Source: Escherichia coli
GTDB lineage: Bacteria; Pseudomonadota; Gammaproteobacteria; Enterobacterales; Enterobacteriaceae
Assembly (NCBI RefSeq): GCF_024298765.1
Contig: NZ_CP101210.1
Length of the DNA: 64,000 bases
Strand: one strand, 5' to 3'
The notes beneath the pieces were generated by a model. That model was not told the origin of the DNA and searched no databases. It saw only the letters and a list, made by a program, of their open reading frames with translations. Each line of letters opens with the position of its first letter. The first letter of the stretch is position 1. A program made the translations under genes and the position numbers. Shown one piece after another: positions 2,539 to 60,009 of this stretch.

Positions 2539-5354
2539 CAGGCAAACTTACGTTTTTCACCGTCACCGGCGACGTTGCTGACACAGCGGCCGCAGATTTC
2601 TGCGTGTTCCGCCACCTTGCCGACATCCTGGGTGTAGTGCCAGCAGCGTGGGCACTTCTCACCTTCGGCTTTACTCAACGCGACTTTCAGCCCTTTGAGT
2701 ACTTCGCTCTGCTGAGCATCAGCAGGTGCATCGTTATAGTCTGCAACGGTAGCGCCGGAGGTCAACAGGACAAATCGTAATTCATCGCCCAGCGCGGTCA
2801 GTTTCGCCGCCAGTTCCGGTTCTGCATACAAGGTTACTGCCGCTTCCAGCGAGCCACCCACTTTCTTATCGGCACGCGCTTGCTCAATGACTTTGTTCAC
2901 TTCGCCACGCACTTTCAACAGCTCGTCCCAGAACGCATCGTTCATCGCTTCACTGTCTGCCAGACCAAACAGGCCTTCGTACCACTCACCGGTAAAGACG
3001 TATTTTTCACGTTCGCCCGGCAGATAGCCCCACACTTCATCAGCGGTGAAGGAGAGGATTGGTGCCATCCAGCGCACCAGCGCTTCAGCGATGTGATACA
3101 GCGCAGTCTGGCAGCTACGACGCGCCACGCTGTCCGCTTTGGCGGTATACTGACGGTCTTTGATGATGTCGAGGTAGAAGGAACCCATCTCAACGGAGCA
3201 GAAGCGCATCAGACGCTGTACCACTTCGTGGAAATCGTATGCTTCGTACGCCTTGAGGATGTCTTCCTGTGCCGCTTTCGCACAACCTACGGCCCAGCGA
3301 TCCAGTACCACCATCTCTTCCGGTTTCACCATATCTTTTGCCGGATCAAAACCGTTCAGGTTTGCCAGCAGGAAGCGCGCGGTGTTACGGATACGACGAT
3401 AGCTGTCGGCAGCACGTTTCAGGATCTCGTCAGAAACGGCCATTTCGCCAGTGTAGTCGGTTGATGCCACCCACAGACGCAGAATATCCGCACCCAGTTT
3501 GTTCATCACATCCTGCGGCGAAACGGTGTTACCGATGGATTTAGACATCTTGCGACCCTGACCATCCACGGTAAAGCCGTGAGTCAGTACCTGACGATAT
3601 GGCGCTTTGCCCTTCATCGCGGTAGAGATCATCAGGGAAGACATGAACCAGCCACGGTGTTGGTCAGAACCTTCCAGATACATGTCCGCTGCGTGACCGG
3701 CAAATTCCGGACGCACATCAACAACGGAAGAGTGGGTAGATCCGGAGTCAAACCATACATCCAGCGTATCCGGTACTTTCACATACTGGTCAGCTTCGTC
3801 GCCGAGGATCTCTTTCGCATCGAGATCCCACCACGCCTGAATGCCGTCAACTTCAACGCGTTTTGCCACTTCTTCCATCAGTTCGAGAGTACGCGGATGC
3901 AGTTCTTCTGTGTCTTTGTGCACGAACAGTGACATCGGCACGCCCCAGGTACGCTGACGAGAGATACACCAGTCAGGACGGTTAGCAACCATCGACTCGA
4001 TACGCGCCTGGCCCCAGTCAGGGATCCACTGCACACCTTTGATCTCTTTCAGTGACTGCGCACGCAGACCTTTCTGATCCATGCTGACGAACCACTGCGG
4101 CGTCGCGCGGAAGATGATCGGCGTTTTGTGACGCCAGCAGCACGGATAGCTGTGCTGCATTTTCTCAACGTGCAGCAGCGCGCCTTTTTCCTGCAGCAGC
4201 GCAACGACGATGTCGTTCGCTTTGAAGACGTTCACGCCATCCAGCGTCGGGTAAGTGCCCGGCAGATAAGTGCCGTCCGGGCCAACCGGGTTAGCGGTTT
4301 CCAGACCATATTTTTGACCGATCACATAGTCGTCCGGACCGTGGCCTGGCGCGGTATGAACGGCACCGGTACCGGCATCCAGCGTAACGTGGTCGCCGAG
4401 AATTGCCGGAACATCGAAGTCCATAAACGGATGGGTAAAGCGCAACAGTTCCAGCTCGGCACCTTTCACCGTGCCAAGAATGGTGTAATCGCTAACGCCG
4501 ATACGCTGCATTACGCTTTCAACCAGATCTTTCGCGAGGATCACGGCCTGACCGTCGATTTGCACCAGCGCATAATCAAAATCAGGTGCAATGGAGATTG
4601 CGCGGTTAGCAGGCAGCGTCCACGGCGTGGTGGTCCAGATAACCAGCGAAATTGGGCCGTTAACATTGCTTACGCCAAATTTCGTTTTCAGCGCATCCTG
4701 ATCGACCGCCTGGAAAGCGACGTCGATGGACGGAGAAGTTTTGTCGTAATACTCAACTTCCGCTTCTGCCAGTGCAGAACGGCAGTCAACGCACCAGTGC
4801 ACCGGCTTCGCGCCTTTGTGCAGGTGACCGTTGCCGATGATTTTGCCCAGCGCGCGGATGATGTTGGCTTCAGTTTTGAAGTCCATGGTCAGGTACGGGT
4901 GCGACCAGTCGCCCAGCACGCCCAGACGGATAAAGTCTTTGCGCTGACCGTCAACCTGGGTCGCAGCGTATTCGCGGCACTTGGCGCGGAACTCAGCGGC
5001 GGTGAATTTCTCCCCCGGCTTACCGTATTCTTGCTCTACTTTCAGTTCGATTGGCAGACCATGACAGTCCCAGCCAGGCACATACGGCGAGTCATATCCA
5101 GAAAGCCCTTTGGACTTAATGATAATGTCTTTCAGAATCTTGTTAACCGAGTGACCAATATGAATGCTGCCATTCGCATAAGGAGGGCCATCATGCAGAA
5201 TGAAGGTTTTTTTGCCTTTTTTAGCTGCACGAATGATGCCGTACAGATCATCATCAGTCCAACGCGCCAGCATTCCCGGTTCGCGCTTGGCGAGATCGCC
5301 ACGCATCGGGAACCCTGTTTCCGGCAAATTCAGGGTTGATTTATAGTCACTCAT
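2538..5354 (-). CDS. ileS: isoleucyl-tRNA synthetase
   Basis: 938 aa ORF with class I aaRS signatures ([12 protein letters not shown]; KMSKS) and C-terminal zinc-binding cysteines. Confidence 0.97.
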
Positions 5355-9157: not shown

Positions 9158-9654
9158 TTTTTATTTCTCTTTCAGGTGAATAGATCGTTTTTACTATCTT
9201 ACCCCGCACGAATCATCGTTAAAATCAGATTATAGTGTAGGAATAATTCGCTTTTTACGAGGCATTGAAAGATTTGCGTCATCAGTGATGATATGAGTTT
9301 TTGACGGCTGTAAGCGCTGACGTGTGACCCTAAGCCCTGATAATCATAGCTTAAGGTAAGGATTTCTGAGGGATTAATTGGGAAAAGTAATAATTAATTT
9401 GTTGTCAGTCGGCGATGTTTGTTAGGCCAATACTTCAAAAATAATCCAGTTTGTCGTCAATAATTGCGATGAAGAGATAAATTAAAGTTAAATAATTAAA
9501 TCATTAAAAAATTACGCCATAAAAATGCGAGGCGTCTTCAGGATTAGAATCGATAAAACAGAATGGGTTAAAGAGAGCGATATAATAGCGGCGGGTGCTT
9601 GAGGCTGTCTGTCTCAGGCATTAGCTGAACGGCAGATAGAGAAAAGCCCCGAGT

Positions 9655-9720
9655 GATATTTTACTATCAACCCGAGGCCCCCTATATGCAGAACACATGT
9701 AGAGTGCCTCTTACTGACCG
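9655..9720 (-). ncRNA. sokC: putative Sok-type antisense RNA (sokC) overlapping the mokC start region
   Basis: Inferred only from the architecture of hok/sok loci; promoter and ends not located in the sequence. Confidence 0.25.
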
Positions 9721-9895
9721 TAAGGTCAAGGAGAAGAGAGCAATGAAGCAGCATAAGGCGATGATTGTCGCCCTGATCGTCATCTGTATCACCGCCGTAG
9801 TAGCGGCGCTGGTAACGAGAAAAGACCTCTGTGAGGTTCACATCCGAACTGGCCAGACGGAGGTTGCTGTTTTCACGGCTTACGAATCCGAGTAA
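9686..9895 (+). CDS. mokC: Mok-type regulatory reading frame overlapping hokC
   Basis: In-frame extension upstream of hokC reading MQNTCRVPLTDRKVKEKRAMKQHKAM... Confidence 0.55.
   Translation: MQNTCRVPLTDRKVKEKRAMKQHKAMIVALIVICITAVVAALVTRKDLCEVHIRTGQTEVAVFTAYESE
9743..9895 (+). CDS. hokC: Hok/Gef-family type I toxin (small membrane peptide)
   Basis: 50 aa MKQHKAMIVALIVICITAVVAALVTRKDLCEVHIRTGQTEVAVFTAYESE, canonical Hok family sequence. Confidence 0.8.
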   Translation: MKQHKAMIVALIVICITAVVAALVTRKDLCEVHIRTGQTEVAVFTAYESE

Positions 9896-11129: not shown

Positions 11130-11217
11130 CTTTTTTAAATTGCCCCTAGATGAATGCACGGGCGGAGAGGAAATACCCCTTCGCCCGTGTCAGTATAATT
11201 ACCCGTTTATAGGGCGA

Positions 11218-19625: not shown

Positions 19626-19760
19626 TGCCGGATGCGGCGTGAACGCCTTATCCGGCCTACAAAAGCATGCAGATTCAATATATTGCAGAATTAACGTAGG
19701 CCTGATAAGACGCGCCAGCGTCGCATCAGGCGCTGAATGCCGGATTGTTACCCGGCATTT
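19626..19760. repeat. REP elements in inverted orientation (BIME-like) between yaaA and yaaX
   Basis: gccggatgcggcgtgaacgccttatccggcctac and the inverted copy gtaggcctgataagacgcgccagcgtcgcatcaggc. Confidence 0.8.
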
Positions 19761-24982: not shown

Positions 24983-25016
24983 TCGAAAAAAAAGCCCGCA
25001 CTGTCAGGTGCGGGCT
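24983..25016 (-). terminator. thr operon attenuator terminator
   Basis: Minus strand agcccgcacctgacagtgcgggct followed by a run of eight T, between thrL and thrA. Confidence 0.8.
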
Positions 25017-25039
25017 TTTTTCTGTGTTTCCTGTACGCG

Positions 25040-25108
<69 letters not shown>

Positions 25109-49293: not shown

Positions 49294-50844
49294 ATGCCCA
49301 CTTCTCATGAAAATGCACTGCAACAACGTTGCCAGCAAATTGTCACCAGCCCAGTGCTTAGCCCGGAGCAGAAGCGCCATTTTCTGGCTCTGGAAGCAGA
49401 AAACAATCTGCCTTATCCGCAGCTTCCTGCCGAAGCCCGCCGCGCGCTGGATGAGGGTGTAATCTGCGATATGTTTGAAGGTCATGCGCCGTACAAACCG
49501 CGCTATGTCTTACCCGATTACGCCCGTTTTCTGGCGAACGGTTCCGAATGGCTGGAGCTGGAAGGCGCGAAAGATCTTGATGATGCACTCTCTCTGCTGA
49601 CCATTCTTTACCACCACGTACCATCGGTCACATCGATGCCGGTCTACCTGGGGCAACTGGATGCGTTGTTGCAACCGTATGTTAGAATTCTAACACAAGA
49701 CGAGATCGATATTCGAATAAAACGTTTCTGGCGTTACCTCGACAGAACCCTGCCAGACGCCTTTATGCACGCCAATATCGGCCCGTCTGATTCGCCCATT
49801 ACCCGCGCGATCTTACGTGCAGACGCAGAGTTGAAGCAGGTTTCACCGAACCTGACCTTTATCTACGATCCTGAAATCACCCCTGATGACCTACTGCTGG
49901 AAGTGGCGAAGAACATCTGTGAATGTAGCAAACCGCACATCGCCAACGGTCCGGTGCATGATAAAATTTTCACAAAAGGGGGCTACGGGATTGTGAGCTG
50001 TTACAACTCACTGCCGCTGGCGGGTGGTGGCAGCACGCTGGTACGCCTTAACCTGAAAGCCATTGCCGAGCGCAGTGAATCGCTGGATGACTTCTTTACA
50101 CGCACTCTACCGCACTACTGCCAGCAGCAGATCGCCATCATCGATGCGCGGTGTGAATTCCTCTATCAACAATCACACTTCTTTGAGAATAGCTTCCTGG
50201 TGAAAGAAGGGCTGATTAACCCTGAACGTTTTGTGCCAATGTTTGGCATGTACGGATTGGCGGAAGCAGTTAACTTACTGTGTGAGAAAGAAGGAATTGT
50301 CGCACGTTACGGTAAAGAAGCCGCTGCAAATGAAGTGGGTTATCGCATCAGCGCGCAACTGGCGGAGTTTGTCGCCAATACCCCCGTGAAATATGGCTGG
50401 CAAAAACGCGCCATGCTACACGCACAGTCGGGGATCAGTTCCGATATTGGCACCACGCCGGGTGCACGCTTGCCGTATGGTGATGAGCCAGATCCGATCA
50501 CCCATCTGCAAACCGTCGCCCCGCATCATGCTTATTATTATTCCGGCATCAGCGACATTCTGACGCTCGACGAAACCATCAAACGTAATCCGCAGGCGCT
50601 GGTACAGCTTTGCCTCGGTGCCTTTAAAGCCGGAATGCGTGAATTTACCGCCAATGTCAGCGGTAACGATCTGGTTCGCGTTACCGGTTATATGGTGCGT
50701 TTGTCGGATTTAGAAAAATATCGCGCCGAAGGTTCACGCACCAACACCACCTGGCTGGGAGAAGAAGCCGCACGCAACACTCGTATTCTGGAACGCCAGC
50801 CGCGCGTGATAAGCCATGAACAGCAGATGCGCTTTAGTCAGTAA
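49294..50844 (+). CDS. yjjI: glycyl-radical-enzyme-like protein YjjI (DUF3029)
   Basis: 516 aa [44 protein letters not shown]... Confidence 0.88.
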
Positions 50845-51679
50845 GATTATCCCCTTCTCCTGCGTTGACGGGCCAGGCAGTCGTCTGGCTCTGTTTTTGC
50901 AGGGCTGCAATCTGCGCTGCAAAAACTGTCACAATCCGTGGACGATGGGGCGCTGTAATGATTGCGGAGAGTGCGTGCCGCAGTGTCCGCATCAGGCGTT
51001 GCAGATTGTTAACGGCAAAGTGGTGTGGAACGCTGTGGTTTGCGAGCAATGTGATACCTGCCTGAAGATGTGCCCGCAACATGCCACGCCAATGGCGCAA
51101 TCCATGAGCGTGGATGAGGTGCTTAGCCATATCCGCAAAGCAGTGCTGTTTATTGAAGGGATAACGGTGAGCGGCGGCGAAGCCACGACCCAGCTGCCGT
51201 TTGTGGTGGCGCTGTTTACTGCCATCAAAAACGATCCGCAACTGTGCCATCTCACCTGTCTGGTGGACAGTAACGGTATGTTGAGCGAAACCGGCTGGGA
51301 AAAATTACTTCCGGTGTGCGACGGCGCAATGCTCGATCTCAAAGCGTGGGGGAGCGAATGTCATCAGCAATTAACCGGACGCGATAATCAGCAGATTAAG
51401 CGCAGCATCTGTTTGCTTGCCGAGCGCGGCAAGCTGGCAGAACTGCGTTTGCTGGTAATCCCTGGCCAGGTGGATTATTTGCAACACATCGAAGAACTGG
51501 CGGCGTTTATCAAGGGACTTGGCGATGTTCCGGTACGCCTGAACGCGTTTCATGCCCACGGCGTGTATGGCGAAGCGCAAAGCTGGGCGAGCGCCACGCC
51601 GGAAGATGTTGAGCACCTGGCTGGCGCTTTACAGGAGCGCGGGGTGAGCCGGTTGATATTTCCGGCGCTATATTTGTGA
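50816..51679 (+). CDS. yjjW: radical SAM glycyl-radical enzyme activase YjjW
   Basis: 287 aa; N-terminal CxxxCxxC ([12 protein letters not shown]) plus ferredoxin-like cysteine clusters; overlaps yjjI by 29 nt. Confidence 0.88.
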
Positions 51680-51683
51680 CATG

Positions 51684-51900
51684 CCGGATGTGGCCTACGG
51701 ATCGGCACAGACCTGTAGGCATGATAAGACGCGTCAAGCGTCGCATCAGGCATTGTGCGCCAGCTGCCGGATGCGGCGTGAACGCCTTATCCGGCCTACG
51801 GTTCGGCACAGACTTGTAGGCATGATAAGACGCGTCAGCGTCGCATCAGGCATTGTGCGCCAACGGCCGGATGCGGCGTAAACGCCTTGTCCGGCCTACG
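51684..51900. repeat. BIME: three REP copies separated by two copies of a roughly 65-bp spacer unit
   Basis: Repeated gccggatg(c/t)ggc...cctacgg(a/t)tcggcacagac(c/t)tgtaggcatgataagacgcgtca...gcgtcgcatcaggcattgtgcgcca units. Confidence 0.85.
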
Positions 51901-52675
51901 GCACGTTAAACAACGTATACGTGTTATTAAGCAACACTTCGGCAATTTCATCTTCTGGTTCCGGGCGTAACTCGCAAAGCACGGCAAACACCCGCGCGGC
52001 CTGTTCCGGGCGATTAGGCTGCCCCTGAAAACCGTTGAGCGGCATATCCGGCGCGTCGGTTTCCAGCAACAACGATGCCAGCGGTAATTTTGCGATGACA
52101 TCGCGGGTTTTACTGGCGCGTGGATAGGTGATAGTACCGCCTACGCCGATTTTGTAGCCCAGCAGTACAAACCGTTCGGCCTGTTGCAGGCTGCCGGAAA
52201 AACCGTGAACCACGCCAGTGCGTGGCAAATCGTGGCGTTTAAGATGCATCGCCAGTTTGTCGTGTGTGCGCCGTGAATGCAGGATCACCGGCAGATCGTA
52301 GCGTTTCGCCAGTTTCAGTTGTTCGTCGAGTAACCACTGCTGCCTCTCAAATTGCGGATCGTCGCCGAAGAGATCCAGACCGATCTCCCCCACCGCCACC
52401 ACCTTCGCCGGACGCCTTTCCAGCGCCTGCTGTAGCTGATCAAGAGACACATCGCTATGTTTTTTCAACATACCAGGATGCAAGCCCAATGCGGCATACA
52501 GCGGTTGATATTTTTCCGCTAACGCCTGCACGCGGGCAAAATTTTCCGCCTCTGTCGCCGGAACAATGATCTTGCCTACGCCCGCTTGTGCCGCGCGTTG
52601 CAGGCTGGCCTCTTCATCGCCACTAAACGGCGGAAAATCAAAATGGCAGTGGGTGTCGATAAAACGGCAAATCAA
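51896..52675 (-). CDS. yjjV: TatD-family metal-dependent hydrolase YjjV
   Basis: 259 aa MICRFIDTHCHFDFPPFSGDEEASLQRAAQAGVGKIIVPA..., TatD HxH motif. Confidence 0.9.
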   Translation of the reverse strand: MICRFIDTHCHFDFPPFSGDEEASLQRAAQAGVGKIIVPATEAENFARVQALAEKYQPLYAALGLHPGMLKKHSDVSLDQLQQALERRPAKVVAVGEIGLDLFGDDPQFERQQWLLDEQLKLAKRYDLPVILHSRRTHDKLAMHLKRHDLPRTGVVHGFSGSLQQAERFVLLGYKIGVGGTITYPRASKTRDVIAKLPLASLLLETDAPDMPLNGFQGQPNRPEQAARVFAVLCELRPEPEDEIAEVLLNNTYTLFNVP

Positions 52676-59686: not shown

Positions 59687-59773
59687 GCGAAGGTGGCGGA
59701 ATTGGTAGACGCGCTAGCTTCAGGTGTTAGTGTCCTTACGGACGTGGGGGTTCAAGTCCCCCCCCTCGCACCA
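59687..59773 (+). tRNA. leuQ: tRNA-Leu (anticodon CAG)
   Basis: 87-nt gcgaaggtggcggaattggtagacgcgctagcttcaggtgttagtgtccttacggacgtgggggttcaagtcccccccctcgcacca with CCA end and long variable arm; copy name assigned by operon order. Confidence 0.93.
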
Positions 59774-59801
59774 AAAACCACGTTGATATTGCTCGCACTG
59801 G

Positions 59802-59888
59802 GCGAAGGTGGCGGAATTGGTAGACGCGCTAGCTTCAGGTGTTAGTGTTCTTACGGACGTGGGGGTTCAAGTCCCCCCCCTCGCACCA
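59802..59888 (+). tRNA. leuP: tRNA-Leu (anticodon CAG)
   Basis: Second 87-nt copy; differs from the flanking copies by one base in the variable arm (gtgttc versus gtgtcc). Confidence 0.92.
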
Positions 59889-59922
59889 AACGAGGCAATA
59901 TCAAAAAAAGTAAGATGACTGT

Positions 59923-60009
59923 GCGAAGGTGGCGGAATTGGTAGACGCGCTAGCTTCAGGTGTTAGTGTCCTTACGGACGTGGGGGTTCAAGTCCCCCCC
60001 CTCGCACCA
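59923..60009 (+). tRNA. leuV: tRNA-Leu (anticodon CAG)
   Basis: Third 87-nt copy, identical to the first; coordinates cross-checked against the overlapping spurious ORF 59929..60123. Confidence 0.93.

Follow-up and report, generated by a model that had tools for sequence, protein, structure and literature searches.

The intergenic repeats between the convergent genes yjjW and yjjV of Escherichia coli are a variable-copy BIME-2 array

The repeats lying between the convergent genes yjjW and yjjV in the 64,000-nt stretch of Escherichia coli DNA analysed here (hereafter the window) are, almost certainly, a BIME-2, namely a tandem array of Y- and Z2-type REPs in alternating orientation. Its structure was resolved as ΔZ2-[Y-Z2]x2, i.e. 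a BIME-2 unit of 100/101 bp repeated 2.1 times in tandem, and a combination of BIME-2 identity, comparative history and a 3′-UTR barrier role is probably the best overall explanation of the locus. The array is already known biology, an ordinary variable-copy BIME-2; arrays of this class, their Y/Z2 anatomy, copy-number polymorphism, targeting by IS1397 and proposed 3′-UTR roles have been described since the 1990s and again in recent work.

The two flanking genes were placed by the open reading frame list and the RefSeq annotation of the 100%-identical strain 2014C-3338. yjjW (50816..51679, + strand) encodes a YjjW-family glycyl-radical enzyme activase according to RefSeq, and yjjV (51896..52675, − strand) a TatD-family metal-dependent hydrolase of 259 aa, whose translation ends in ...FNVP* in the window, with which the RefSeq CDS end concurs. 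The genes converge on a 216-bp gap that houses the array at 51683-51899, beginning 3 nt beyond the yjjW stop codon TGA (51677-51679), so the gene upstream of the array is yjjW for + strand transcripts and yjjV for − strand transcripts. Placement is extragenic except for a 4-nt overlap of the last Z2 with the yjjV CDS.

Tandem Repeats Finder (TRF) assigned the array a 100-bp period, 2.1 copies, 93% matches and a score of 371, and a repeat search returned direct repeats of 65 nt (94% identity) and 54 nt (89%) at 100-101 bp apart. Together with the open reading frames and RefSeq, these bore out the BIME that a sequence-only reading of the window had placed between yjjW and yjjV. The Z-REP pattern matched three times in the window versus 0.00 times in shuffled sequence, and another identical Z REP was located at window position 19627-19660. 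The whole array region folded far better than its shuffles on either strand (z = −6.7 on + and −7.1 on −).

From the yjjW side, the array starts with ΔZ2 (51683..51698, − strand), a 16-nt boundary remnant of a Z2 REP, GCCGGATGTGGCCTAC, recognized by folding and by comparison with intact copies. It is followed by the 16-nt tail-to-tail linker 1, GGATCGGCACAGACCT, which lies between CTAC and GTAG (51699..51714, in-register dissection), and by the first Y-type REP (51715..51752, +, 38 nt, GTAG on the + strand), an imperfect palindrome with an AA/GC bulge that was identified by pattern match and by its hairpin of −15.2 kcal/mol (z −4.66). The 12-nt head-to-head linker 1, TTGTGCGCCAGC, defined by dissection and comparison with the REP325 array (51753..51764), then leads into the first Z2-type REP (51765..51799, −, 35 nt, GTAG on the − strand), an exact pattern match with a hairpin of −21 kcal/mol (z about −5). 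The second unit repeats this order: the 16-nt tail-to-tail linker 2, GGTTCGGCACAGACTT (51800..51815, in-register dissection); the second Y-type REP (51816..51852, +, 37 nt), delimited by dissection, with a hairpin of −15.3 kcal/mol (z −4.53) and a loop 1 nt shorter than that of the first; the 12-nt head-to-head linker 2, TTGTGCGCCAAC (51853..51864, dissection); and the second Z2-type REP (51865..51899, −, 35 nt), again an exact pattern match, with a hairpin of −21 to −24 kcal/mol. All four full units show the traits of E. coli group-2 REPs, which are imperfect palindromes of 30-40 nt: GTAG stands immediately 5′ of the palindrome, at 51715 and 51816 on the + strand for Y and at 51799 and 51899 on the − strand for Z2, and each full REP carries an internal 2x2 bulge at AA/GC on its GTAG strand. 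The four full hairpins range from −15 to −24 kcal/mol with z values of −4.5 to −5.3, and none of 200 shuffles folded equally well; in the minimum-free-energy fold of the region, the central Z2 pairs with the following Y.

This anatomy differs from that of the sequence-only reading, in which three REP palindromes of the same type were separated by two copies of a unique spacer of about 65 bp. Superficially, GCCGGATG...CCTAC does occur three times and the intervening sequence is duplicated. However, just 51765-51799 and 51865-51899 are full Z hairpins and the first ‘REP’, 51683-51698, is a remnant devoid of a hairpin, while each ‘spacer’ holds a complete, canonical REP of the Y type, oppositely oriented, which has a GTAG and a hairpin of its own and is flanked by the 16-nt and 12-nt linkers, and the tandem unit measures 100/101 bp. 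Dissection, the Y pattern match, the folds and the comparison with REP325 thus refuted the three-REP arrangement, to which we attach next to no credence. The near-identity of the ‘spacer’ copies was correctly perceived, as by direct reading over 64 nt the two copies differ by two substitutions and a 1-nt indel, but the local duplication hinted at by a ‘duplicated spacer unit’ was not upheld: the units are 93% identical to each other and up to 98% identical to those of other strains, and being closer to their counterparts elsewhere than to each other, they are old members of the array. A CRISPR-like array was rejected as well, the ‘spacers’ being identical and themselves REPs. As for small protein-coding genes, mechanical open reading frames of 47-99 aa do overlap the array, e.g. 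that at 51681-51881 (+, 66 aa), but the 100/101-nt period cannot be divided by three, and with alleles differing by whole units and by 1-nt indels, no frame is conserved between strains; RefSeq annotates no gene in the array either, and a coding role can practically be dismissed.

The assignment to BIME-2 came from comparison with REP325 and with the published definition. REP325 is made up of Z2 and Y according to the literature. The Z2 unit is identical to its REP325 counterpart at 34 of 35 positions and the Y unit at 36 of 38, and it is on this identity to REP325 units, not on published Z1/Z2 consensus sequences, that the call of Z2 rather than Z1 rests. The linkers are short (12 nt head-to-head, 16 nt tail-to-tail) and locus-specific, as the description of BIME-2 has them; that description names a short head-to-head linker S and flanking motifs s, l or r. 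By the published definition, a BIME-2 consists of z2 and y REPs repeated several times in tandem, its linkers being short and variable and its copy number differing among strains (PMC3333891; PMC1187871), and the array agrees with that definition by its Y/Z2 alternation, tandem copies, short linkers and copy number varying among strains. Conversely, identity as a BIME-1 with an IHF site was ruled out by the tandem copies, the 12/16-nt linkers and the IHF consensus WATCAANNNNTTR, which matched three times in the window and nowhere within 51680-51900.

Both Z2-Y pairs, read as RNA of the − (yjjV-sense) strand, matched the Rfam family RF02564 (naRNA4) over model positions 1-77 of 77, at 51718..51796 with 76.5 bits and at 51819..51896 with 73.7 bits, against a gathering score of 59.5; the + strand reached 51.5 and 48.3 bits, under that score. 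Two full-length matches over the gathering score could speak for a nucleoid-associated RNA, in which Z2-Y pairs would be processed to an RNA of 77 nt with two hairpins, able together with HU to bridge cruciform DNA, as in the original naRNA4/HU model of nucleoid condensation (PMC4550694). RF02564, however, effectively models any Z2-Y unit of a BIME-2, so a match indicates the sequence class and not a function, and a 2026 study saw neither measurable nucleoid compaction by REP325/naRNA4 nor REP-REP contacts; such a role at yjjW-yjjV is thus very improbable.

REP copies of this type are dispersed over the chromosome, and a 1-kb query containing the array found at least 38 places per genome (median, among the matches listed) in 5,425 of 5,426 complete E. 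coli genomes. The linkers are more particular: tail-to-tail linker 1 is specific to the yjjW-yjjV locus, and a 40-mer across tail-to-tail linker 2 occurs one to six times per genome, lying inside the locus wherever checked. Strains were surveyed with a query of the two flanks only, leaving the array out, by which the locus was found in 5,423 of the 5,426 genomes. Allele lengths were taken from a systematic sample of 111 of these 5,426 genomes, and representatives of each length class were dissected at the sequence level. The match spans fell at ~634 bp (5 genomes), ~716 bp (26), 817 bp (17), 833/835 bp (3), 918 bp (10), ~1019 bp (16) and ~1120 bp (33), with one split match, and 0, 1, 2, 3, 4 (K-12) or 5 Y-Z2 units were all seen. 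The array has 2.1 copies in the window, 4.1 in K-12, where the counterpart of the array spans 4614261-4614679, and 10.9 in Escherichia sp. MOD1-EC7003. The length polymorphism anticipated from the sequence alone was hence confirmed, with at least seven length classes in the 111 sampled genomes, in agreement with published work on BIME-2 loci, which most isolates share but in very variable length (PMC1187871; PMC3333891), and counting repeat units across E. coli genomes, as had been suggested, revealed a varying structure rather than one identical in all strains. Single-REP alleles made up about 4.5% of the sample and occurred in several flank backgrounds, and at least one hairpin is retained at the locus in essentially all sampled E. 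coli. One sampled genome carried an IS1397 inserted in the array.

Although polymorphic across E. coli, the array allele is stable within lineages: the window’s array corresponds to the 817-bp allele, which was present in all 60 genomes with 100%-identical flanks. By this comparison, whole Y-Z2 units (0-5) are gained and lost in register within E. coli, slowly enough for clonal lineages to keep one allele. Homologous slippage or unequal recombination between the ~95%-identical units would provide one route, and another could be the REP-associated transposase TnpA-REP (RAYT), cutting and rejoining the DNA. Unit identity is barely higher within arrays (0.924) than between strains (0.912), giving no useful signal on the mechanism of expansion.

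Beyond E. coli, the yjjW-yjjV gap shrinks to 0-21 nt in Enterobacter, Kosakonia, Leclercia, Phytobacter and others, and since the genes nearly abut in these more distant, REP-poor Enterobacteriaceae, the array is a derived insertion. In Escherichia, Citrobacter and Salmonella, the yjjW stop codon is immediately followed by a REP, and the repeat units differ by lineage and are species-specific in each of the three; Citrobacter has arrays of an 84-bp period at the same junction, and Escherichia sp. MOD1-EC7003 has 11 units. By this comparison, each of the three genera has amplified a unit type of its own at the site.

Such a history also suits a selfish or neutral repeat, a footprint of REP/BIME proliferation at a permissive site of convergent 3′-ends with no locus-specific function, where TnpA-REP (RAYT) or recombination would have driven proliferation and copy-number differences would be neutral drift. 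The junctions left empty in many genera, the lineage-specific units, the natural single-REP alleles in several flank backgrounds and the decayed boundary REPs are all in line with it, as are the landing of the REP-targeting IS1397 in the array of one strain and the presence in all full REPs of the GTAG and AA/GC bulge that TnpA-REP requires (PMC8266576; PMC3333891). On the other side, the REP after the yjjW stop was kept across three genera, a hairpin persists in essentially all sampled E. coli, and the stability of alleles within lineages means that the site is neither hyper-mutable nor freely drifting. A neutral origin is moreover compatible with a modulatory 3′-UTR role, and we regard neutrality alone as a real contender, though one that probably falls short.

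The two ends of the array have been reshaped. ΔZ2 (51683-51698) kept the outer 5′ arm and CTAC of a Z2 and lost the 18-nt hairpin core; its fold equals that of shuffled sequence (z = −0.33 and −0.17), which makes it a remnant rather than a REP. An intact 34-nt Z REP occupies the position in strain KE50 and in E. albertii, and as read from the sequence the deletion end-points match a 4-nt direct repeat, CGGC...CGGC, of the intact Z. Only E. albertii and about 2% of sampled E. coli retain an intact yjjW-proximal REP hairpin, which would begin 3 nt past the stop codon; at least three different deletions have destroyed it, each in another Escherichia lineage. On the yjjV side, the GTAG of the last Z2 (51899-51896, −) includes the yjjV stop codon TAG (51898-51896), with the stem starting at the next base, while other strains have ~10 nt between the stop codon and the REP; through one rearrangement, the REP GTAG was joined to yjjV and became its stop, so that the C-terminus reads NVP* instead of NVRG*.

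REP hairpins that begin ~15 nt or less from a stop codon reportedly stall terminating ribosomes (Liang, Rudd and Deutscher, in 2015), from which a translation-level role could be imagined, the stop-adjacent hairpin lowering the output of the upstream gene. The yjjV stop within a REP GTAG, with its stem from the next base, would suit this, and the independent destruction of the REP at the yjjW stop in several lineages would fit a relief from stalling. The decay of boundary REPs is, however, equally explicable by mutation alone, and a 16-nt remnant identical to ΔZ2 was found at an unrelated locus too, so that we hold such a role to be rather improbable. More speculative still, and improbable in our view, is the idea that the changes at the array ends were selected and are not neutral debris, the BIME boundaries tuning termination and CDS 3′-ends; if true, BIME boundaries would act on how translation ends and on where coding sequences stop, and not on 3′-UTR stability alone.

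With respect to function, we infer, with somewhat more confidence than doubt, that the array acts as a passive two-way barrier of 3′ hairpins for the yjjW and yjjV transcripts, with Rho completing termination. The array would be transcribed as the 3′ UTR of both genes, and because REPs are palindromic, either transcript would form four stable hairpins of −15 to −24 kcal/mol, none of them followed by a U-tract. Such hairpins would not give intrinsic termination of RNA polymerase; they would rather halt the 3′→5′ exonucleases PNPase and RNase II, and would provide points of pausing or entry at which Rho could bring about part of the termination. The mRNAs of yjjW and yjjV would thereby obtain stable 3′-ends, less antisense transcription would run on into the opposite gene, and copy number would tune only the strength of the barrier. 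Given the natural single-REP alleles and the REP-free genera, the array is dispensable and any function of it at most modulatory.

A scan for hairpins followed by T-runs returned none within 51680-51900, the sole terminator-like site being at 52089-52107 inside yjjV, and an intrinsic or bidirectional terminator was ruled out by the absence of T-runs from the array. The functions that the sequence-only reading had listed were generic REP lore (terminator, mRNA stabiliser, gyrase or IHF binding site); the intrinsic-terminator part is hence dropped, and so is the IHF part, a BIME-1 trait of which the array lacks the consensus. In K-12, a Rho-termination region on the yjjV-sense strand peaks at 4614777, 98 nt beyond the far end of the array, with a Rho score of 4.9 and p = 6.7e-7 (Adams et al. 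2021, PMC7815308, supplementary file 2), a signal that was computed over 800-nt windows and is not assignable to the array itself. The curated Term-seq 3′-ends of the same work contain none at K-12 4614200-4614799, which may reflect low expression or unmappable repeat reads.

Evidence from other loci points both ways. In favour of the barrier, experiments on REP325 showed it to stabilise mRNA and also to terminate transcription in a partly Rho-dependent manner, and where REPs lie between convergent genes, the two genes tend to be more highly expressed; against it, terminal REPs genome-wide are not linked to longer mRNA half-lives, the effects being context-dependent (bioRxiv 10.64898/2026.03.23.713779). 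Also in its favour, Rho-dependent transcripts are trimmed by PNPase and RNase II back to stable hairpins free of U-tracts, 24% of which are REPs (PMC6061677). For the present genes, the supplement of Harris 2026 lists a differential-expression row for yjjW only.

A role at the DNA level was weighed against the transcript barrier, in which the BIME-2 would be a strong, transcription-independent gyrase site that removes positive supercoils between the converging units. Gyrase cleavage sites are significantly over-represented in a subset of BIME-2s, prefer y-type REPs and rise after rifampicin, and the array is a BIME-2 with two Y REPs between convergent genes; but only that subset is cleaved and the yjjW-yjjV locus is not among the named examples (PMC6379681). 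The supplements of Sutormin 2019 mention neither yjjV nor yjjW, and as neither gene is known to be highly transcribed, little supercoiling stress would be expected there. We therefore deem gyrase binding an unlikely main role, and retain the 3′-hairpin barrier as the preferred reading.

The significance of the array beyond correct annotation is small. It is worth annotating as a REP/BIME rather than as open reading frames or sRNA genes, and with 0-5 units that are stable within lineages, the locus is a candidate for a clean typing marker. The natural allelic series (0, 1, 2, 3, 4, 5 and 11 units, with the stop-proximal hairpin intact or destroyed) would also lend itself to testing the dual terminator/stabiliser model.

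Among known systems, the closest is REP325 (yjdM-yjdN, E. coli K-12), from which naRNA1-6 and Rfam RF02564 derive. Both arrays are tandem, both lie in a 3′ UTR, and both repeat every 100 bp in the order Z2, short head-to-head linker, Y, tail-to-tail linker. They differ in that REP325 has six units between co-oriented genes of one operon, whereas the yjjW-yjjV array has two units plus a remnant between convergent genes; the linkers are unrelated (6/12 identical head-to-head and 8/17 tail-to-tail), and the Y units here mostly have GGCATGAT where REP325 has GGCCTGAT, which weakens the stem base. Compared with BIME-1 (RIP/RIB), the array shares two oppositely oriented REPs in an intergenic position, but BIME-1 is single-copy, composed of Y and Z1 and joined by a conserved long L linker with an IHF site, in contrast to the tandem copies, REP325-type Z2 and 12/16-nt linkers found here. 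The array also resembles REPINs, inverted REP pairs able to form a longer hairpin, as in its minimum-free-energy fold, and its REPs resemble RAYT (TnpA-REP) substrates in that a GTAG precedes an imperfect palindrome that has the AA/GC bulge, the TnpA-REP gene itself lying outside the window. With the BIME-2 family as described by Gilson, Bachellier and Hofnung and by Ton-Hoang et al. 2012 (PMC3333891), it has in common the alternating Y/Z2 REPs, tandem copies, short locus-specific linkers, copy-number variation and targeting by IS1397. Apart from its ends, one a core-deleted remnant and the other a unit overlapping the yjjV stop codon by 4 nt, nothing essential sets the array apart from that family.

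The tandem repeat at 51683-51899, between the convergent genes yjjW (50816-51679, + strand; glycyl-radical enzyme activase) and yjjV (51896-52675, − strand; TatD-family hydrolase), was identified by Tandem Repeats Finder (TRF) as a 100-bp unit in 2.1 copies with 93% matches; a repeat search returned direct repeats of 65 nt and 54 nt at 100-101 bp spacing, and on either strand the region folded much more stably than its shuffled versions (z −6.7 and −7.1). The 1-kb stretch around it is 100% identical to E. coli strain 2014C-3338, in whose RefSeq annotation the array lies within the 216-bp gap of the two genes, starting 3 nt past the yjjW stop codon and overlapping the yjjV stop codon at its other end. 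The structure is ΔZ-Y-Z-Y-Z, with adjacent REPs oppositely oriented. The two Y-type REPs (51715-51752 and 51816-51852, GTAG on the + strand) are imperfect palindromes of about −15 kcal/mol (z about −4.6), each with a 16-nt tail-to-tail linker on one side and a 12-nt head-to-head linker on the other, and the two Z-type REPs (51765-51799 and 51865-51899, GTAG on the − strand) form hairpins of −21 to −24 kcal/mol. The leading ΔZ remnant (51683-51698, GCCGGATGTGGCCTAC) is devoid of the 18-nt core and folds at chance level against shuffled sequence (z −0.33 and −0.17). Thus, the sequence-only reading had rightly recognized a repeat, but its parse into three REP palindromes alternating with two copies of a roughly 65-bp spacer does not hold in two respects: each supposed spacer contains a complete Y-type REP with its GTAG and hairpin, and just two of the three named REPs are hairpins.

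The species-wide survey used a 600-nt query of both unique flanks only, with the repeats excluded, so that subtracting 600 bp from a joined span gives the array length. The locus was found in 5,423 of 5,426 complete E. coli genomes, and the flanks joined in 5,389. Two systematic samples, drawn at even steps down the ranking (111 genomes in total), yielded spans of ~634 bp (5 genomes), ~716 bp (26), 817 bp (17), 833/835 bp (3), 918 bp (10), ~1019 bp (16) and ~1120 bp (33) plus one split match, these being database frequencies skewed to clinical clones rather than those of a natural population. K-12 MG1655, with a 419-bp gap and 4.1 units, likewise differs from the 2.1 units of the window, and the length polymorphism predicted from sequence was thereby borne out. 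The locus is nevertheless not hyper-variable: the 817-bp allele was present in 60/60 genomes with 100%-identical flanks, and all sampled O157:H7 genomes had a span of 817 bp and all sampled K-12 derivatives one of 1020 bp. The two window units are 93% identical to each other, while unit 2 and the corresponding unit of strain KE50 share 98% identity, and therefore the ‘duplication’ is older than the divergence of these strains.

Dissection of one representative per length class resolved a single Z REP in strain 631, ΔZ-Y-ΔZ' in Nissle 1917, ΔZ-(Y-Z)x2 in the window, ΔZ-Y-Z-Y-ΔZ' (2 Y) in O157:H7, Z-(Y-Z)x2, the first Z being intact, in KE50, and 3, 4 and 5 Y in RM6927, K-12 and E275a, respectively, with linker subtypes alternating in the arrays of the latter two. 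Strain L1PEag1 (NZ_CP145513.1) has a single Z REP, and the IS3-family element IS1397 (positions 2548-3970 of the extracted locus, L010) is inserted exactly in its loop (...GCGGCGTAAA / IS / CAAAACGCCTTGTCCGGCCTAC); BIME palindromic units are a known IS1397 target, as indicated by the reference list of PMC3333891, and the insertion is a natural instance of this preference for REPs. One rival account takes such an array as a neutral or selfish repeat.

In the window, K-12, KE50 and strain 631, the yjjV stop TAG is part of the GTAG of the last REP (51896-51899 in the window), and YjjV is 259 aa ending in ...FNVP*; in O157:H7, O104:H4, Nissle, RM6927 and E275a, the right flank is 15-17 nt longer, the stop lies ~10 nt outside the REP, and YjjV is 260 aa ending in ...FNVRG*. 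With these two 3′-ends, the array boundary has reshaped the terminus of a coding region. The alternative yjjV 3′-ends were seen in the extracted loci L005, L007, L008, L009 and L011 (805-852 in the last). Ribosome stalling at a stop-proximal hairpin is a second rival account. At the other end, only E. albertii (L014) and KE50-type E. coli (L006; 2/111 sampled) have an intact REP 3 nt past the yjjW stop, and at least three different deletions affect it in most E. coli, E. whittamii (L013) and E. coli SCPM-O-B-8794 (L015). The 16-nt core-deleted remnant has three matches in the window versus 0.21 expected by chance, the other two being an inverted pair 16 nt apart, at 1988-2003 (+, GCCGGATGCGGCCTAC) and 2020-2035 (−, GCCGGATGCAGCCTAC), between two ORFs on the − strand (149 and 164 aa). 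On either side of the hairpin core stands a 4-nt direct repeat, CGGC...CGGC, at which the deletion starts and ends; this suggests a recurrent 18-nt deletion in Z REPs through slippage across the hairpin between the CGGC repeats.

A YjjW scan with one genome per species gave 53 loci, and yjjV was convergent and downstream of yjjW in all of them. The gap is 0-21 nt without REP in Enterobacter, Kosakonia, Leclercia, Phytobacter, Superficieibacter, Pluralibacter and some Citrobacter; in Kluyvera, Pseudocitrobacter and relatives (L039-L044, L047, L049-L051, L054, L055, L057, L060 and L064), ~1.43 kb is added between the genes, presumably one gene. Salmonella arizonae has one REP pair, E. albertii Z-Y-Z and E. 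whittamii four units, and the largest array seen at the locus, 10.9 units, belongs to Escherichia sp. MOD1-EC7003 (L016 2893-3986), where TRF scored a 201-bp period almost equally well, hinting at a two-unit higher-order repeat. Citrobacter portucalensis (L022 2566-2994; period 84 bp, 5.1 copies) and C. youngae (L031 2866-3341; 84 bp, 5.7 copies) have their own arrays, built from a REP pair of a different, Citrobacter type. Because the sequence right after the yjjW stop starts (N)ATGCCGGATG..., a same-orientation REP, in Escherichia, Citrobacter and Salmonella, their common ancestor probably had a single REP there, and each lineage would then have multiplied a unit type of its own. In strain 631, the single-REP allele bears the marker bases of both window-type array ends (GATGTGG left, TAAACGCCTTGTCC right), and is most simply read as a window-type array that collapsed between the 11-nt repeats GCCGGATGNGG.

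Once transcribed, either strand of the array carries four stable hairpins without U-tracts, and the terminator scan detected no hairpin with a T-run (intrinsic terminator) within it. A Rho-termination region is listed for K-12 on the yjjV-sense strand (peak 4614777, score 4.9, p = 6.7e-7; Adams et al. 2021, PMC7815308, supplementary file 2), with the peak (NC_000913.3, +) 98 nt past the array on the yjjV transcript and antisense to yjjW, equivalent in the window to a − strand position ~98 nt left of 51680, inside yjjW; no curated Term-seq end lies within K-12 4614200-4614799 (PMC7815308). PNPase and RNase II trim Rho-dependent transcripts as far as stable hairpins, and REPs make up a quarter of these (PMC6061677). 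REPs lying between two convergent genes are correlated with raised expression of the pair (bioRxiv 10.64898/2026.03.23.713779). We lean towards the array being a passive two-way barrier of 3′-UTR hairpins, which would set the 3′-ends of the yjjW and yjjV mRNAs, shield them and, with Rho, limit antisense read-through between the two genes; copy number would tune barrier strength and nothing more. A gyrase site (PMC6379681) is a further rival. Inside yjjV, an intragenic sigma-54 binding site in sense orientation is listed for K-12 (CTGGCATCGTTATTGCT; PMC4591121), and the window has CTGGCATCGTTGTTGCT at ~52065-52081 (−), with one mismatch; any transcript from it would run directly into the BIME.

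Both window Z-Y pairs match the naRNA4 family (Rfam RF02564), a model derived from the REP325 unit, end to end on the − strand (76.5 and 73.7 bits; gathering score 59.5), and an naRNA4-like nucleoid RNA is the remaining rival; none of the four rivals excludes another. Elsewhere, a Z REP identical to that of the array (19627-19660) directly adjoins an Rfam ES036 (CssrF) sRNA match (19661-19703; 38.7 bits, gathering score 37.6), and this ‘sRNA’ family may itself be REP/BIME-derived. The other Rfam matches, sok antitoxin RNA (9593-9745), tpke11 (11130-11207), the thr operon leader (24985-25104) and a tandem run of three tRNA genes that score identically (59687-60006), are ordinary features of this chromosomal region in E. 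coli.

A BIME-1 element consists of one y-z1 pair whose long linker binds IHF, while BIME-2 elements combine z2 and y REPs, differ in copy number among strains and have locus-specific units (Ton-Hoang et al. 2012, PMC3333891; PMC1187871). The motif scan found no IHF consensus inside the array. A linker-spanning 40-mer occurs 1-6 times per genome, and in the one genome checked its match lies inside the yjjW/yjjV locus; the unit is therefore locus-specific, agreeing with the literature description. By its sequence and, independently, by the two naRNA4 matches, we assign the array to BIME-2. The BIME call of the sequence-only reading stands together with its polymorphism prediction, and its spacer model falls. 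Among the closest known systems is REP325 (yjdM-yjdN), six Z2-Y pairs (Qian et al. 2015, PMC4550694; Harris et al. 2026, bioRxiv 10.64898/2026.03.23.713779), with which the array shares layout and period, and to whose units the window Z and Y are identical at 34/35 and 36/38 positions, whereas the linkers show no relationship (identical at 6/12 and 8/17 positions). REP325 is a partly Rho-dependent terminator and mRNA stabiliser (Harris et al. 2026), and its architecture is common to the window array, which is a typical member of a long-known family, with its K-12 counterpart in the standard REP/BIME repertoire.
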